Positions 2,566-39,704 of a DNA stretch of 39,704 bases are shown here, piece by piece. Under the pieces are notes generated by a model. That model saw nothing but the letters and a program-made list of their open reading frames with translations, was not told the origin of the DNA and did no database searches. The DNA comes from Escherichia phage K1F. Each line of letters opens with the position of its first letter. Position 1 is the first letter of the stretch. Both the position numbers and the translations under genes were made by a program. The stretch lies in sequence record NC_007456.1. One strand, 5' to 3'.

Positions 2566-5247
2566 ATGAGCGTCATCTCTATTGACAAACACGACTTCTC
2601 TGATGTGTCGAACGCCATTGAGCCGTTTAACCTGCTGGCCGACCACTACGGGCAAGACCTTGCAGTCAAACAGCTTCAGCTTGAGCATGAGGCATACACT
2701 GAAGGCGAGCGACGTTTCATCAAAAACCTTGAGCGACAGACTGAGCGCGGGGAACTGGCAGACAATCAGGTCGCCAAGCCTTTGATGCAGACTCTGGTTC
2801 CTAAGATTGCGCAAGCCGTCAAGGAGTGGCACGAAGGTCCAGACGGGAAGCTGTCAACCTCTCGTCCTAGCGTAGCGTTCACCATGTTGAGCACTGAAGA
2901 GAGGGCCGTTAAAGACCGTTCTCTACGCATCTCCTGCGAGTCTGCTGCTGTCATCATACTGAAGGTCATCCTCTCCAAGCTGGTCAAGCCTGAAGGGATA
3001 CCGATTACACCGATGGCCTCCGCGATAGGTCGCACACTTGAGGACGAAATCCGCTTCGGGCGCATCCGTGACAAGGAGAAGGAGCACTTCAAGAAGGCGA
3101 TAGCTGATAACCTGAACAAGCGAGCTGGTGCATCCTATAAGAAAGCCTACATGCAAGCGGTCGAAGCATCCATGCTGGAGCAAGGCCAACTGGAAGATGC
3201 ATGGGGGACTTGGAGTCCTACAGAGGCTGTCCACGTTGGCATCAAGATGCTTGAGATTGTCATCCAGTCAACACAACTGGTCGAGCTTAAGCGTTACGGT
3301 GCTGGCAATGCAGCGGCTGATGTCGAGATGGTCCACCTGTCAGACTTCTGGGTCAAGAAGATGGCACAACGTGGATTCAGCCTTGCGGGTATCGCACCAG
3401 TCTATCAGCCTTGCGTCGTTCCACCTAAGCCGTGGACGGGTGTCGTAGGCGGTGGTTACTGGGCCAAAGGTCGCAGACCATTACCGCTGATTCGCTTAGG
3501 CTCTAAGTCTGCGGTAGCACGTTACGAAGACGTGTACATGCCTGAAGTCTATGAAGCTGTGAACATCATTCAGAATACACCTTGGAAAGTGAACAAGAAG
3601 GTTCTGGACGTGGTGAACATGGTCGAGAAGCTGAACAACACGCCTATTGATGACATCCCTCAGATGGAACCACTGAAGCCTGAGGCTTATGCGGGTGAGA
3701 CCGAGGAGGAACTCAAGGCATGGAAGAAGGCTGCTGCTGGTATCTATCGCCGCGAGAAGGCCAGACAGTCACGCAGGTTGTCACTGAGCTTTATCGTTAA
3801 CCAAGCGAACAAGTTCTCTCAGTTCAAGGCTATATGGTTCCCGTACAACATGGACTGGCGCGGTCGCGTCTACGCTGTGCCGATGTTCAACCCTCAGGGT
3901 AACGACATGCAGAAGGGTCTCCTGACTCTGGCAGTTGGCAAGCCTATTGGTGCTGACGGTTTCAAATGGCTAAAGGTACACGGTGCAAACTGCGCGGGTG
4001 TCGATAAAGTCACCTTCGAGGAGCGCATCAAGTGGGTGGAAGACAACCACGACAACATCATGGCTGCTGCTAAAGCACCTATGGACAGCATTGAGTGGTG
4101 GGGAAAGTTAGACTCTCCGTTCTGTTTCCTCGCGTTCTGCTTCGAGTATGCTGGCGTAATGCACCATGGCCTGTCTTACTCCTGCTCGCTGCCGATAGCG
4201 TTCGATGGGTCCTGCTCTGGGATTCAGCACTTCAGCGCGATGCTTCGTGACCACATCGGTGGACATGCGGTAAACCTGACGCCTTCCGGTAAAGTCCAAG
4301 ACATCTACCGCATCGTGTCCGACCGCATTGAGGAGGAGCTTAAAGTCCTGCTGGTTAACGGCACGGACAACGAGATGGTAACTCACGAGGACAAGAAAAC
4401 TGGTGAGATTACCGAGCGTCTCAAGCTGGGGACACGAGAGCTGGCCCGTCAGTGGCTGACCTACGGTATGTCACGAAAGGTCACTAAGCGTTCGGTCATG
4501 ACTCTGGCCTACGGGTCGAAAGAGTACGGCTTCGCAGACCAAGTTTACGAGGACATCGTGATGCCAGCGATTGACTCAGGGTCTGGCGCTATGTTCACTG
4601 AACCAAGCCAAGCATCTCGCTTCATGGCTAAGATGATTTGGGAAGCTGTGAGTGTGACCGTAGTTGCTGCGGTTGACGCGATGAAATGGCTTCAGGGTGC
4701 TGCCAAGCTGCTGGCGGCTGAAGTGAAGGACAAGAAGACGGGTGAAATCCTGAAGCCTTGCCTTCCGGTACACTGGGTCACACCTGATGGGTTCCCGGTC
4801 TGGCAGGAATACCGCAAGAAGGATACTACTCGTCTGAACCTGATGTTCTTAGGGTCCTTCAACCTTCAACCTACCGTCAACAAAGGTACGAAGAAAGAGC
4901 TGGATAAGCACAAGCAGGAGTCAGGCATTAGCCCGAACTTCGTCCACTCACAAGATGGTAGCCACCTCCGCAAGACTGTAGTCCATACTCACCGCAAGTA
5001 TGGCGTGATGTCGTTCGCAGTGATTCACGATAGCTTCGGGACCATCCCGGCTGACGCTGAGTATCTGTTCCGTGGGGTCCGTGAGACTATGGTCGAGACC
5101 TACCGCGACAACGATGTGCTGCTTGACTTCTACGAGCAGTTTGAATACCAGCTTCACGAGAGCCAGCGCGATAAGTTGCCAGAGCTTCCGAAGAAAGGTA
5201 AACTGAATATCGAAGACATCTTGTCTTCAGACTTTGCATTCGCTTAA
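2566..5247 (+). CDS. 1: Single-subunit DNA-directed RNA polymerase (T7 gene 1 homolog), 893 aa
   Basis: Collinear similarity to T7 RNAP from N-terminus (KHDFSD...PFN.LADHYG) to C-terminal DFAFA; AAGGA SD. Confidence 0.97.
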   Translation: MSVISIDKHDFSDVSNAIEPFNLLADHYGQDLAVKQLQLEHEAYTEGERRFIKNLERQTERGELADNQVAKPLMQTLVPKIAQAVKEWHEGPDGKLSTSRPSVAFTMLSTEERAVKDRSLRISCESAAVIILKVILSKLVKPEGIPITPMASAIGRTLEDEIRFGRIRDKEKEHFKKAIADNLNKRAGASYKKAYMQAVEASMLEQGQLEDAWGTWSPTEAVHVGIKMLEIVIQSTQLVELKRYGAGNAAADVEMVHLSDFWVKKMAQRGFSLAGIAPVYQPCVVPPKPWTGVVGGGYWAKGRRPLPLIRLGSKSAVARYEDVYMPEVYEAVNIIQNTPWKVNKKVLDVVNMVEKLNNTPIDDIPQMEPLKPEAYAGETEEELKAWKKAAAGIYRREKARQSRRLSLSFIVNQANKFSQFKAIWFPYNMDWRGRVYAVPMFNPQGNDMQKGLLTLAVGKPIGADGFKWLKVHGANCAGVDKVTFEERIKWVEDNHDNIMAAAKAPMDSIEWWGKLDSPFCFLAFCFEYAGVMHHGLSYSCSLPIAFDGSCSGIQHFSAMLRDHIGGHAVNLTPSGKVQDIYRIVSDRIEEELKVLLVNGTDNEMVTHEDKKTGEITERLKLGTRELARQWLTYGMSRKVTKRSVMTLAYGSKEYGFADQVYEDIVMPAIDSGSGAMFTEPSQASRFMAKMIWEAVSVTVVAAVDAMKWLQGAAKLLAAEVKDKKTGEILKPCLPVHWVTPDGFPVWQEYRKKDTTRLNLMFLGSFNLQPTVNKGTKKELDKHKQESGISPNFVHSQDGSHLRKTVVHTHRKYGVMSFAVIHDSFGTIPADAEYLFRGVRETMVETYRDNDVLLDFYEQFEYQLHESQRDKLPELPKKGKLNIEDILSSDFAFA

Positions 5248-5574: not shown

Positions 5575-5618
5575 GACTCAAGGTCATGACTCAAAGTCGT
5601 GGCCTTCATGATTAACCC
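5573..5618 (+). promoter_or_regulatory. Conserved ~45-bp element A (TAGACTCAAGGTCAT...GTGGCCTTCATGATTAACCC), RNase III-site-like
   Basis: One of three near-identical elements (5573, 12860, 36453) at positions matching T7 R1.1, R4.7, R18.5. Confidence 0.4.
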
Positions 5619-5647
5619 TGAATAAACACTACTGGAGATTTAACCGT

Positions 5648-22310: not shown

Positions 22311-22313
22311 TTG

Positions 22314-22352
22314 AAACCCCTTGGGTGCCTTCGGGTGCTTGAGGGGTTTTTG
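22314..22352 (+). terminator. Tphi-like terminator (AAACCCCTTGGGTGCCTTCGGGTGCTTGAGGGGTTTTTG)
   Basis: GC-rich hairpin with U-tract; near-identical in form and position to T7 Tphi. Confidence 0.85.
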
Positions 22353-25296: not shown

Positions 25297-25320
25297 CTTA
25301 TTGAAGGGCCTATAGATTTA

Positions 25321-25343
25321 CCTTAACTATCACTATAGGGACT
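25321..25343 (+). promoter_or_regulatory. Phage RNAP promoter copy 9 (CCTTAACTATCACTATA|GGGACT)
   Basis: Consensus match; upstream of gene 13. Confidence 0.75.
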
Positions 25344-25372
25344 ATAGGCCCTTAAGGTTATAAGGAGACTTT

Positions 25373-36188: not shown

Positions 36189-36448
36189 CGCAGATGGACT
36201 TAGAGAAGTTCCTATTGATGCTGGATACTGAACGTGCTCGACTCATGCTGCAAGACTTACGTGACGACTCTAAGCGTTCACCTCAGCTCTACAACGCCAT
36301 TGAGAAGCTGCTTGCTCGTCACAACTTTGTGTTAAGCAAGGTGTCTGTGGACGAGAAGACGCTGGCTGATATGGAGGCCCTGAACGCAGAGTACGATAAG
36401 GTGCTTTCAGCGACTGAGGATAATGACACCGGGTATGGTGTTCAATAA
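36185..36448 (+). CDS. 18: Terminase small subunit (T7 gene 18 homolog)
   Basis: ...RSPQLYNAIEKLLARH.F... matches T7 gp18 (RSPQLYNAIEKLLDRHKF); ATGA overlap with holin. Confidence 0.85.
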   Translation: MTQMDLEKFLLMLDTERARLMLQDLRDDSKRSPQLYNAIEKLLARHNFVLSKVSVDEKTLADMEALNAEYDKVLSATEDNDTGYGVQ

Positions 36449-36452
36449 GTGT

Positions 36453-36498
36453 TAGACTCAAGGTCATTACTATATGTAGTGGCCTTTATGGTTAACAC
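36453..36498 (+). promoter_or_regulatory. Conserved ~45-bp element C (RNase III-site-like), after gene 18
   Basis: TAGACTCAAGGTCATTACTATATGTAGTGGCCTTTATGGTTAACAC; T7 R18.5 position. Confidence 0.4.
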
Positions 36499-36550
36499 TA
36501 ACTAGTGGAGGCGACTCTACGTGAAAATCTGATAAACCGGGAGGGCAACT

Positions 36551-37000
36551 ATGCTCGAATTTTTAAAGAGGGCGGCTCCGTGGTTACTTGCAGCAGTGAT
36601 GTTTGCTGGTGGCTACCACACCGCTAACAATAAGTGGGAGGCTAAGGTCAATGCGGAATACACCTCGAATCTTAAGGCATCGGAAGATACAAGGCTTGCT
36701 GTCCAAGCTGAAGTCAACAAAGTGTCCAAACGGTTTCAGGACGAAATGTCCTCGTTGGAAGGCAGCACTGATAGGATTATTGCTGACCTTAAGTCTGACA
36801 ATAAGCGGCTGCTCATCCGAGTCAAACCTACGAGTGGAACCACGCAAAGTGACGGTCGATGCTTCATTGATGGTTACGCCGAACTTGACGAACGAGATGC
36901 TAAACGTCTTATCGCCATCGGAGTGAAAGGAGACAAGTGGATTAAGGCCCTTCAAGACACTGTGAGAGCCTTACAGCAAGAGAAGGAGGTGACGCATTGA
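36551..37000 (+). CDS. 18.5: Rz-like i-spanin (T7 gene 18.5 homolog)
   Basis: N-terminal TM segment ([15 protein letters not shown]), coiled-coil periplasmic domain; SD GGGAGGG. Confidence 0.8.
36651..36926 (+). CDS. 18.7: Rz1-like o-spanin lipoprotein embedded in +1 frame of 18.5 (gene 18.7 homolog)
   Basis: Signal/lipobox [16 protein letters not shown]; ...RWKAALIGL...ISGCSSES...[15 protein letters not shown] resembles T7 gp18.7; ATG 36651 within track ORF 36603..36926 (TTG start). Confidence 0.75.
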   Translation: MRNTPRILRHRKIQGLLSKLKSTKCPNGFRTKCPRWKAALIGLLLTLSLTISGCSSESNLRVEPRKVTVDASLMVTPNLTNEMLNVLSPSE

Positions 37001-38757
37001 GTAAAGACTTAGTGGCGCGTCAGGCGCTAATGACTGCCCGTATGAAGGCAGACTTCGTGTTCTTCCTGTTCGTCCTGTGGAAAGCTCTGTCACTCCCGGT
37101 CCCGACTCGCTGTCAGATTGACATGGCGAAGAAACTATCGGCTGGTGACAACAGGCGTTTCATCTTACAGGCGTTCCGTGGTATCGGGAAGTCCTTCATT
37201 ACGTGTGCATTCGTGGTCTGGAAGCTATGGAACAACCCAGACTTGAAGTTCATGATTGTGTCGGCCTCAAAGGAACGAGCCGATGCGAACTCCATCTTCA
37301 TCAAGCGAATCATCGACCTCATGCCTCAGCTTAAGGAACTCAAACCTAAGCAGGGACAGCGAGATGCGGTTATCAGCTTCGACGTTGGACCAGCCAAGCC
37401 GGACCACTCACCTTCGGTTAAGTCCGTTGGTATCACTGGTCAGTTGACTGGTAGTCGTGCTGACATCCTGATTGCCGATGACGTGGAGGTTCCGAACAAC
37501 TCAGCGACTCAGGCTGCACGAGACCGTCTGTCAGAGCTTGTGAAAGAGTTCGATGCTATCCTGAAGCCCGGAGGCACAATCATCTATCTGGGTACTCCTC
37601 AGAACGAGATGACCCTGTATCGTGAGCTGGAAGGTCGTGGGTACACCACTACTATCTGGCCTGCTCGTTATCCACGCGACAGGAAGGACTGGCAGTCTTA
37701 CGGCGACCGTCTGGCTCCTATGCTTCAGGCAGAACTGGAAGAGGACCCTGAGTCCTTCTACTGGCGTCCGACCGACGAGGTACGCTTCGATGATACGGAC
37801 CTGAAGGAACGTGAGTTGTCATATGGCAAGGCTGGCTTCGCTCTACAGTTCATGCTTAACCCGAACCTGAGTGATGCTGAGAAGTACCCTCTGAAGCTCC
37901 GTGACCTTATCGTAGCCGACTTGGACCCAGCGTCTAGCCCAATGGTATACCAATGGCTTCCTAACCCTCAGAACAAGCGTGAGGACGTTCCTAACGTTGG
38001 ACTCATGGGTGACTCATACCACACGTATCAGACTGTAGGTTCTGCCTTCAGTTCGTACACCCAGAAGATTCTGGTCATTGACCCTAGTGGTCGTGGTAAA
38101 GATGAAACTGGTTATGCGGTACTGTACCAGCTCAACGGCTACATCTTCGCTATGGAAGTTGGCGGTATGCGAGGTGGCTATGAAGACTCTACGCTGGAAG
38201 CCTTGGCTAAGATTGGTCGTAAGTGGAAGGTCAACGAATACGTCATTGAGGGTAACTTCGGTGATGGTATGTACCTTGAGCTATTCAAGCCTGTAGCGGC
38301 CCGTATTCATCCTGCTGCTGTAACTGAAGTGAAGAGTAAGGGTCAGAAGGAACTCCGCATCTGTGACGTTCTGGAGCCTATCATGGGGTCTCACCGACTT
38401 ATCGTTAACGCTGCTGCTATCGTCCAAGACTACCAGTCAGCCTCTGATAAGGATGGTGTGCGTAACCCTATCTACTCTCTCTTCTACCAGATGACCCGTA
38501 TCTCTCGTGAACGTGGAGCCTTGGCACACGATGACCGACTTGATGCGCTGGCTATCGGTGTACAGTTCTTCGTTGAGTCGATGGCTAAGGATGCCAACAA
38601 AGGCGAACGTGAAGTCACTGAGGAGTGGCTGGAAGAACAGATGGAGAACCCACGGAAAGGCTTCGAGTCCATCCACACTGAGTTCTGGGACAATGGGGTC
38701 CGGGTAACTCATGATACAGACGAGCTGGGACTAGGGTCCTACGTTACGTTCCATTAG
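36997..38757 (+). CDS. 19: Terminase large subunit (T7 gene 19 homolog), 586 aa, apparent TTG start
   Basis: ...[50 protein letters not shown]... nearly identical to T7 gp19; TTG 36997 preceded by AAGGAGGTGA, overlaps 18.5 stop. Confidence 0.93.
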
Positions 38758-38766
38758 CTGAGTGAA

Positions 38767-38815
38767 TAACTATAGGTGAAAACTGCATGAATACGCAGTT
38801 AGTAACCTATAGTTA
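38767..38815 (+). other. Nested inverted repeat / hairpin downstream of terminase gene
   Basis: TAACTATAGGT (38767-38777) is the exact reverse complement of ACCTATAGTTA (38805-38815); inner AACTGC/GCAGTT pair around an 8-nt loop. Confidence 0.6.
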
Positions 38816-38851
38816 CTACCAGTCTAACCTACTGTTTTACAAGGAGTTTGG

Positions 38852-38874
38852 ACTTAACTATCACTATAGGAAGA
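38852..38874 (+). promoter_or_regulatory. Phage RNAP promoter copy 11 (ACTTAACTATCACTATA|GGAAGA), phiOR analog
   Basis: Consensus match downstream of gene 19, as T7 phiOR. Confidence 0.75.
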
Positions 38875-39052
38875 CTACCGGTTACTTATAGTATTACTGT
38901 AGTGAATATACATATGCAGACTTTATGCAAGACCTTAGGAGGCAGACTCCGAGTTCTTACCTAAGGCTTGCACCGATGGAAGGAGGTGATATTAATCATA
39001 ATACCTCCAATACAGATAGTCACAGACCATAGATACAGGAGGTATGTAGCAT

Positions 39053-39214
39053 ATGGCAAAGACCAAAGCTGTACTTAAAGCTCTGGCGACCAATCGAGCT
39101 ACATACAGGTTTCTTGCTGCTGTTCTACTTGCTGCTGGCGTTACTACTGCTGGAAGTCAGTGGGTCGGGTGGGTCGAGACTCTCATATGTTCTCTGGTGT
39201 CTGAGTGTCGTTAA
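39053..39214 (+). CDS. Small hydrophobic protein (53 aa), gene 19.5 position
   Basis: ATG with AGGAGG SD; Ala/Leu-rich hydrophobic core; last ORF region before right DTR. Confidence 0.45.
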   Translation: MAKTKAVLKALATNRATYRFLAAVLLAAGVTTAGSQWVGWVETLICSLVSECR

Positions 39215-39249
39215 CGCCGTAATGGTAACAATCAACGAAAGGAGGTAGT

Positions 39250-39318
39250 ATGGACGAAGAGTCTTACGGTTCGTTCTCTGAAGAGGACTATAAGACGGAG
39301 TGGGAATACGCCCATTGA
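39250..39318 (+). CDS. Possible 22-codon ORF with strong SD
   Basis: AAAGGAGGT 5 nt upstream of ATG; acidic peptide MDEESYGSFSEEDYKTEWEYAH. Confidence 0.25.
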   Translation: MDEESYGSFSEEDYKTEWEYAH

Positions 39319-39444
39319 AGACCTAAGGTCAGTTCATAGCTGACGCTACTCTACTGACCTTAGCTACTGTAGTCAAGGACTTTAGGTAACACCTTAAGAG
39401 AAGCTCACTTAGGGTCATCCTACTTATTGGTCTATCCTAGTGTC

Positions 39445-39490
39445 GCCTGACCTACGGTCCTTGACCTACAGTGGCTGTGGCCTACAGCAG
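39445..39490. repeat. Short direct repeats (CCTACGGT/CCTACAGT/CCTACAGC) next to right DTR
   Basis: Same CCTACAGT motif family as at 247-315 beside the left DTR. Confidence 0.65.
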
Positions 39491-39526
39491 TGACGATGAG
39501 TTTTGGACCAAAAGTTTGAGACCACA

Positions 39527-39704
39527 TCTCACAGTTCAAGAACCTCAAGTCTCCCCATAGGCCCTCTTTAAGTCCAGACCAAAGGCCCTACCCCAGTCTA
39601 TCATAAGGTTGGACCGATGGTCAAGACGTCAGGTCAACGATAGGTCTAGGCTATGGCTTAGGGAAGGACGATAGGTGGTGACTATTGGTCTGTCTCTGAG
39701 TCTC
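39527..39704. repeat. Right direct terminal repeat (DTR), 178 bp
   Basis: Exact copy of 1-178. Confidence 0.95.

Follow-up and report, generated by a model that had tools for sequence, protein, structure and literature searches.

What does a perfect inverted repeat do directly behind the large terminase gene of a T7-like phage? The question arises in Escherichia phage K1F (NC_007456.1), whose whole sequence of 39,704 nucleotides is the window analyzed here, and in which an 11-bp inverted repeat lies between the stop codon of gene 19 and the last phage promoter, phiOR. K1F belongs to the genus Kayfunavirus of the subfamily Studiervirinae. The stretch of ~95 bp between gene 19 and phiOR is without annotation in any record examined, and no feature is given at the position of the repeat in the records of K1F, EcoDS1, CR44b, FE44, T7, and T3. 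Judged by comparison with related genomes, the inverted repeat is real and is the core of an RNA element of ~75 nt that is preserved in two genera of T7-like phages. It appears to be a previously undescribed conserved stem-loop at the 3′ end of an mRNA, of a familiar kind but with an unusual sarcin-ricin-type module. We see about an even chance that it acts in cis, within the 3′ untranslated region (3′-UTR) of the gene 19 mRNA, as a barrier to exonucleases or as a site that defines the 3′ end.

A covarying hairpin behind gene 19

Strong evidence for the element comes from comparing sequences, i.e. from its conservation with compensatory change in relatives. The sample comprises 24 close loci from IMG/VR, 8 from metagenomes (found by a DNA-pattern scan), and a few GenBank records, and a repeat scan of IMG/VR added no contigs to these. 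A broader sample of 80 Studiervirinae loci was anchored on the C-terminus of gp19, the gene 19 product, and the region is covered by 190 of 211 related GenBank records (~90%), while the corresponding FE44 query is covered by 53 records. The Kayfunavirus alignment is ungapped and holds 21 distinct sequences. When the K1F structure is laid over these, 79.9% of the cells are standard pairs and 11 pairs are changed on both sides. The covariation score is 0.217, compared with 0.080 or less after the 3′ partners were shifted by 1–3 columns, and none of 500 shuffles scores as high.

In the lower stem, which is the 11-bp repeat itself, compensatory changes are found at 8 of the 11 pairs within Kayfunavirus. 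For example, the SH4/SFPH2 group has the top of this stem swapped (TAGG/CCTA to CGCA/TGCG), and the L018 group has exchanged the lower stem for GTACCG/CGGTAC; wholesale stem replacement is seen in groups C and D of the relatives. Pair 23–57 of the alignment can be followed through a series, from A-U in K1F to G·U in 3 loci (L004, L008, and L051) and to G-C in the L016 group. The upper stem is paired in ~88–90% of the cells across relatives, and one of its pairs shows a compensated change from C-G to G-C in Berlinvirus. As for the outer stem, CTG/CAG in K1F stands against ACC/GGT in the L016 group, and pairs 6–73 and 8–70 of the Kayfunavirus alignment have both sides changed.

A covariance model built from the Kayfunavirus sequences only (R1) recovers the element as the sole strong match in the K1F genome, at 104 bits. 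In the Berlinvirus FE44/PhiV-1 group, the same model independently picks up a hairpin that follows the gene 19 stop codon without a gap (E = 3e-5 to 5e-4); the gp19 C-termini of this group are only ~56% identical to that of K1F. Once Berlinvirus is added to the alignment, double changes are seen at 16 of 27 pairs, and compensatory changes occur in at least four lineages. A second copy in K1F was found neither by R1 with its filters off nor by a scan for the GAA/AGUA pattern described below, and a model extended to Berlinvirus has no match in T7, T3, K11-like, or more distant clades. No Rfam covariance model gives a match that overlaps the element, even at E ≤ 10. A sequence-only reading of this window, which had pointed out the repeat, named non-conservation in relatives beforehand as a result that would speak against it; we find the hairpin conserved in Kayfunavirus and Berlinvirus.

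That reading described an 11-bp perfect inverted repeat located 10 bp after the gene 19 stop codon and ~40 bp before the last promoter, enclosing a 6-bp AACTGC/GCAGTT repeat with an 8-nt loop. The description is accurate: the arms are at 38767–38777 and 38805–38815, the inner arms at 38781–38786 and 38795–38800, and the loop at 38787–38794; the distance from the stop codon is 10 nt, and the repeat ends 36 nt before phiOR. Two features go beyond it, namely an outer stem that contains the stop codon and a 3 × 4 internal loop, GAA/AGUA. The parts of the predicted stem-loop and its immediate surroundings are as follows (MFE, minimum free energy; PWM, position weight matrix).

38754–38827, + strand: whole three-tier RNA stem-loop (outer stem, lower stem, internal loop, upper stem, apical loop), predicted from the MFE fold and covariation
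38754–38764, + strand: 5′ half of the outer stem, TTAGCTG. GTG, predicted to pair with 38817–38827
38767–38777, + strand: 5′ arm of the lower stem, TAACTATAGGT, part of the perfect 11-bp inverted repeat
38778–38780, + strand: 5′ side of the internal loop, GAA, one half of the sarcin-ricin consensus
38781–38786, + strand: 5′ arm of the upper stem, AACTGC, inverted repeat
38787–38794, + strand: apical loop, ATGAATAC, 8 nt, with the common pattern A-U-NNNN-A-M
38795–38800, + strand: 3′ arm of the upper stem, GCAGTT, inverted repeat
38801–38804, + strand: 3′ side of the internal loop, AGUA; its aGTA columns are nearly invariant in a 28-sequence alignment
38805–38815, + strand: 3′ arm of the lower stem, ACCTATAGTTA, part of the perfect 11-bp inverted repeat
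38817–38827, + strand: 3′ half of the outer stem, TACCAG. CTAA, from predicted pairing and covariation
36997–38757, + strand: gene 19, large terminase subunit, open reading frame of 586 amino acids (gp19 in AM084414)
38755–38757, + strand: gene 19 stop codon TAG, inside the 5′ half of the outer stem (38754–38760 pairing in the fold)
38825–38840, + strand: conserved spacer motif, TAACCTACTGTTTTAC, between the hairpin and phiOR, which travels with the element
38852–38874, + strand: phiOR promoter, ACTTAACTATCACTATAGGAAGA, PWM score of 35.8 bits, +1 at 38869, last of 11 promoters, outside the hairpin

The region is predicted to fold as RNA with −27.9 kcal/mol, compared with −11.6 ± 2.6 in shuffled sequences (z = −6.3; 0 of 200 shuffles as good), and we infer that this RNA is produced in vivo and folds as predicted. 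Its stem is AT-rich (37% GC). Taken alone, the 11-bp repeat is weakly significant, because K1F has 3 places where perfect inverted arms of 11 bp or more are separated by 3–40 nt, while the shuffle mean is 0.8. The right end of K1F is 100% identical to AM084414 and NC_007636 over the queried part. The genome sequence as a whole has 39704 bp vs 39699 bp in AM084414/NC_007636; relative to AM084414, this offset of +5 bp builds up from ~7.1 kb to 17 kb (0, +1, +2, +3, +5), and reflects small indels by which two versions of the K1F sequence differ in their early and middle region.

The internal loop is kept while the stems around it change, i.e. GAA (38778–38780) stays opposite AGUA (38801–38804). 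In FE44, for example, the sequence is GCGG-GAA-AGGUGC...GCACUU-AGUA-CCGC. Kayfunavirus group A and Berlinvirus both have the strict two-tier hairpin with GAA/AGUA, built on unrelated stems, and groups B and C retain GAA and AGUA inside larger internal loops. A scan of both K1F strands for such a hairpin returns only this one, with 0.03 expected by chance.

The sarcin-ricin (bulged-G) motif, also known as eukaryotic loop E, is a 5 × 4 loop with a tHS A-G pair, a tWH U-A pair, a bulged G, and a tHH A-A pair (PMC8450098), and AGUA is its characteristic sequence (PMC8450098; PMC13085918). By sequence, the K1F loop fits this consensus, and it presumably adopts the corresponding geometry. Similarities include AGUA opposite GAA, closure by a Watson-Crick pair (U38777–A38805, which adjoins the A·G position), and conservation amid varying helices. 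The flanking lower tSH position differs between groups: A/A in group C is an allowed combination, and U/U in group B is not a listed one. The U/A of K1F and FE44 is allowed too, but it could equally be a Watson-Crick pair. The K1F match differs from established examples in being at the level of sequence only, in its setting in the 3′-UTR of a phage mRNA rather than in rRNA, a riboswitch, or RNase P, and in that one subclade of the phages replaces the motif.

The pattern of the apical loop is shared by its variants in relatives, which read AUAGGUAA, AUGUAUAA, and AUGGGUAA. An open reading frame of 34 codons begins at the ATG of this loop (38787, with AGGTGA upstream). We rejected it as a coding sequence, as it is not conserved: the L016 group has 10 codons of it and the L017 group 4, and there is no ATG at this place in FE44.

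Across the lower and upper stems, the + strand has 39 G·U cells and 10 A·C cells, and because G·U exceeds A·C, the + strand would be the one under pairing constraint. An opposite tendency is that 8 of 26 sequences fold better on the − strand. The region also folds as single-stranded DNA (−13.5 kcal/mol, z = −5.5), and the G·U asymmetry alone does not exclude + strand DNA, since G·T is tolerated in single-stranded DNA. What argues for RNA over DNA in the aligned sequences is the free replacement of the arms together with the conserved non-Watson-Crick loop. Of the three candidates that the sequence-only reading put forward without a preference, an RNA-level role (a stabilizer of the mRNA 3′ end or an RNase III site) is favored by the compensatory changes, by the G·U excess, and by the orientation of the promoters, with all 11 matches to the 23-bp phage promoter in K1F lying on the + strand; its third candidate, a DNA hairpin, is disfavored.

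Proposed action at the end of the terminase message

If the hairpin protects or defines the 3′ end of the gene 19 mRNA, the following course of events would be expected. Rightward late transcripts made by the phage RNA polymerase would pass through gene 19 and would not terminate at the hairpin, because no U-tract follows it. The RNA would then fold into the outer stem with the stop codon, the 11-bp lower stem, the GAA/AGUA loop, the 6-bp upper stem, and the 8-nt loop. Host 3′-to-5′ exonucleases would start from the transcript end, be it at the end of the genome, at a concatemer junction, or where an endonuclease has cut. The hairpin would determine where the terminase message ends, either as these exonucleases stall at its base or as an endonuclease cuts in or near the loop. 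The gene 17.5–19 message would be stabilized and set apart from the phiOR unit, which starts ~50 nt downstream, and the conserved non-Watson-Crick loop would provide extra stability or rigidity and, maybe, a docking site for a protein.

A structured element follows gene 19 in most Studiervirinae clades, and a true hairpin with a U-tract is found there in a few distant clades. Among 22 termination sites of a T7-like phage whose 3′ ends were mapped, only 5 were predicted to be intrinsic terminators (PMC10134795), so ends of the non-terminator type are common. The structures after gene 19, the U-tract hairpins in distant clades, and the mapped non-terminator ends support a role of the hairpin at the transcript end.

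Known protective stem-loops at mRNA 3′ termini, including the T7 mRNA ends left by RNase III, resemble the K1F element in several respects. They share with it a stable stem-loop right after the last codon in a polycistronic late transcript and the lack of a U-tract, so that the action would be post-transcriptional; the K1F element is also dispensable but conserved. They differ in that the K1F element has a conserved sarcin-ricin-type loop and an apical pattern.

Several points weigh against such a protective role. A plain exonuclease barrier needs neither a conserved internal loop nor an apical pattern, and the explanation may thus be incomplete. Our literature search found no relevant transcript-end maps for T7-group coliphages and no described element at this position, the K1F genome paper (Scholl & Merril 2005) not being covered by it. 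The cell counts given above overstate the number of independent events, as many of the sequences are closely related. The GAA/AGUA loop is lost in group D Kayfunaviruses (L018 and L025), which have the hairpin, and T7 and T3 have two small hairpins at this place, with z of about −1 to −1.4. Finally, the phages PE3-1 and CR44b, where an HNH gene is inserted, are viable without the element. Because it is lost in viable HNH-insertion phages, the element is dispensable, and any benefit is modest or replaceable.

Two small hairpins after gene 19 are shared by the clades that lack an element of the K1F type, the first being UAUGCA-loop-UGCAUA and the second GRCCA-CGGAWG-GYC; they are located at 3132–3190 in the T7 locus (L026), at 2353–2400 in the T3 locus (L142), and in the K11-like loci (L112–L131). 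The clades differ in the stem of the second hairpin but retain its loop, ACGGA[A/U]G (or CATGGAGG in others). This hairpin may be a separate conserved element.

Other explanations for the hairpin

The best surviving alternative, which we consider unlikely, is a T7-type RNase III processing site: the host enzyme would cut the hairpin in or close to its internal loop, so that a protective 3′ hairpin is left upstream and the phiOR-proximal RNA is freed. The T7/T3 RNase III signals (R0.3 ... R18.5) are likewise irregular hairpins of about two turns, with an asymmetric internal loop, in intergenic positions on the + strand. The K1F geometry fits this length (~8 layers below the apical loop, the internal loop, and the 11-bp stem; ~21–22 layers), and its position is intergenic within a polycistronic late transcript. 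The hairpin also resembles two-tier hairpins at other K1F intergenic sites, and the R13-like site of K1F uses a perfect stem as well, of 12 bp and containing CUAUAG. However, its upper stem has 6 bp vs ~11 bp in the T7/T3 signals, and it is without the motif GACUCAAGGUC...GGCCUUxAUGxUUAAC that is common to the canonical K1F sites. As DNA, this shared block reads GACTCAAGGTC...GGCCTTxATGxTTAAC in the RNase III-like sites at ~5575–5620 and 36448–36500. In the T3 record, RNase III stem-loops (R18.5) are marked, but not in the interval from gene 19 to phiOR; the records of T7 and EcoDS1 likewise show no site there, and none of the ten T7 RNase III sites is known to occupy this position. A rigid sarcin-ricin loop is not a known feature of RNase III sites either.

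Elsewhere in K1F, a 12-bp perfect inverted repeat (AGGGCCTATAG... / ...CTATAGGCCCT) at 25304–25354 encloses the phage promoter at 25321–25343. This is probably the K1F counterpart of the T7 arrangement, in which the phi13 promoter and the R13 RNase III site overlap.

Less probable again, and in our view distinctly so, is a protein-binding regulatory RNA, in which the GAA/AGUA module and the apical loop recruit a phage or host protein that tunes terminase expression or couples late transcription to events at phiOR, for instance replication priming or packaging initiation. Candidate partners would be the terminase, the complex of phage RNA polymerase and lysozyme, or a host RNA-binding protein. 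The loops are conserved while all three stems covary, as is typical of a specific recognition surface, and sarcin-ricin motifs are recurrent interaction modules. The element adjoins phiOR and the conserved spacer motif, and there is a report that the phage RNA polymerase and gp19 interact during maturation (PMC3276506). Against this, no partner is known or predictable, the loop consensus is absent from group D, phages with HNH insertions are viable without the element, and T7 and T3, which have been studied for packaging, do not have it.

We regard it as very unlikely that the hairpin makes the phage RNA polymerase pause or terminate, limiting read-through from the late operon into phiOR, maybe in combination with TACTGTTTT downstream. 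Its stability and its position where the last long operon ends would suit this role, and a few distant clades have a hairpin with a U-tract at the same place. The sequence-only reading had already set aside a classic intrinsic terminator for want of a U-tract, and rightly so: the stem is followed by CTACCAGTCTAACC, with no U-run, and a terminator scan of 38000–39704 finds none. As a positive control, T-phi, the class I terminator of K1F (22313–22350), has a GC-rich stem and then UUUUU (GGGGTTTTT). T-phi resembles the gene 19 hairpin in ending a highly transcribed late gene block, but the latter is AT-rich in its stem and has no U-run directly after it. The T-run is 21 nt beyond the lower stem and is not retained in groups B–D or FE44.

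The class II pause and termination signal has the consensus ATCTGTT on the non-template strand. This heptamer is not present in 38754–38827, the nearest sequence being TACTGTTTT at 38830–38838, and CTACTGTTTTAC at 38829–38840 is two swapped bases away from the class II consensus, which is a point in favor of a pause signal. However, a copy with the ATCTGT core, TATCTGTA, lies at 179–186, directly after the left terminal repeat, and its retention suggests that the K1F polymerase relies on the standard class II sequence, from which the spacer deviates. We note that TATCTGTA corresponds in K1F to TATCTGTT, the class II pause signal at the T7 concatemer junction.

The spacer motif itself is found as TAACYTACTG(T/A)T in Kayfunavirus, in FE44 (GTAACTTACTGATATAC), and in two further loci (L104 and L132), and in a weaker form in T7 (GTTACTGAAAAG); it resembles ATCTGTT without matching it. 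Beyond it, the promoter homologous to phiOR of K1F bears that label in the EcoDS1 and T3 records. The phiOR transcript is densely structured over its first ~140 nt (38861–39009): an inverted repeat, TCACTATAGGAAGACTA / TAGTATTACTGTAGTGA (38861–38905), spans the phiOR start site, and a 44-nt hairpin at ~38926–38972 and GGAGGTGATATTAATCATAATACCTCC at ~38982–39008 follow. The intergenic stretch 38748–39058 as a whole has z = −4.9.

That the element acts near the right end as a DNA hairpin or cruciform, serving concatemer processing, packaging, or an origin, is, in our judgment, highly improbable. The 11-bp repeat is perfect in K1F and a single strand of it folds as DNA, and packaging specificity maps to the right 5% of the genome (PMC3276506), within which the element lies. 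However, pairing is conserved and arm sequence is not, the pairing is strand-asymmetric (G·U exceeding A·C), and viable phages with HNH insertions lack the element. Its location is also unfavorable, i.e. upstream of phiOR rather than between phiOR and the right repeat, and ~710 bp from the terminal repeat (1–178 and 39527–39704). The same facts of position, replaceable arms, and absence with HNH insertion speak against the concatemer-processing hairpin of the sequence-only reading.

In T7, the processing hairpin is said to have been placed by Chung et al. in 1990 at ~190 bp from the terminal repeat. PMC4925675 cites Chung, Nardone & Hinkle 1990 for a right-end hairpin that is an intermediate of T7 concatemer processing. 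The K1F element is, like it, an inverted repeat in the right-terminal region near phiOR, but it is on the wrong side of phiOR, is too far from the repeat, and covaries in the manner of RNA. A better-placed candidate for a right-end processing hairpin of the T7 type is a perfect 11-bp inverted repeat at 39323–39363 (CTAAGGTCAGT / ACTGACCTTAG, with a 19-nt spacer). Its center lies ~184 bp left of the right terminal repeat (39527). Among relatives its arms are invariant and its spacer varies, the opposite of the pattern in the gene 19 hairpin. The repeat starts 4 nt after the stop codon of an acidic open reading frame of 22 codons (MDEESYGSFSEEDYKTEWEYAH; 39250–39318), which has a strong Shine-Dalgarno sequence (AGGAGGT at 39240–39246) and is missing from AM084414, where only gene 19.4 is annotated in this region.

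Finally, it is hardly credible that the hairpin has no function and represents a palindrome that arose by chance, a degenerate copy of the promoter, or a homing-endonuclease scar or target. In favor of this reading, one 11-bp repeat by itself is not rare by chance, AACTATAGG occurs in the arms as well as in the promoter (the arms reading TAACTAT-AGG, i.e. the promoter minus CACTAT), and HNH genes insert at the hairpin in several lineages. However, the reading is largely refuted by covariation, with compensatory changes in at least four lineages and detection across genera, and only one subclade has the promoter-like sequence, whereas the fold is general. We also rejected a promoter relic as the function of the element, its best PWM score being −11 bits vs 29.9–37.7 bits for the 11 promoters, and the resemblance being limited to the K1F subclade.

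In some Kayfunavirus, an HNH homing-endonuclease gene directly after the gene 19 stop codon replaces the left half of the element; CR44b then keeps a different 9-bp hairpin, and PE3-1-like phages keep none. Among the sampled loci, the position 38757/38758 is a recurrent insertion site for HNH open reading frames in Kayfunavirus, Berlinvirus, and other Studiervirinae clades. Insertions at homologous sites are found in L002/L058, L012/L057/L062, L015/L063, L086, L092, L102, L106, L109, L117, and Yepe2 (H105).

Meaning for T7-like phages

The genomes of T7-like phages rank among the best annotated, and such phages are widely engineered. K1F in particular is a chassis for therapy and engineering, and its polymerase and promoter serve as orthogonal parts. 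An RNA fold that covaries and carries a non-Watson-Crick module would add a regulatory element to the late operon of these phages, and it offers a concrete and cheap test of how the ends of terminase mRNA arise. For genome engineers it brings a caution, in that an intergenic landing site that seems "empty", and that homing endonucleases favor, may not be neutral. If the element is merely a stabilizing hairpin, it would be useful but ordinary. If it instead binds a protein, which we consider improbable, it would represent a new family of structured RNAs in Kayfunavirus and Berlinvirus that links late expression to replication priming or packaging, or that autoregulates the terminase.

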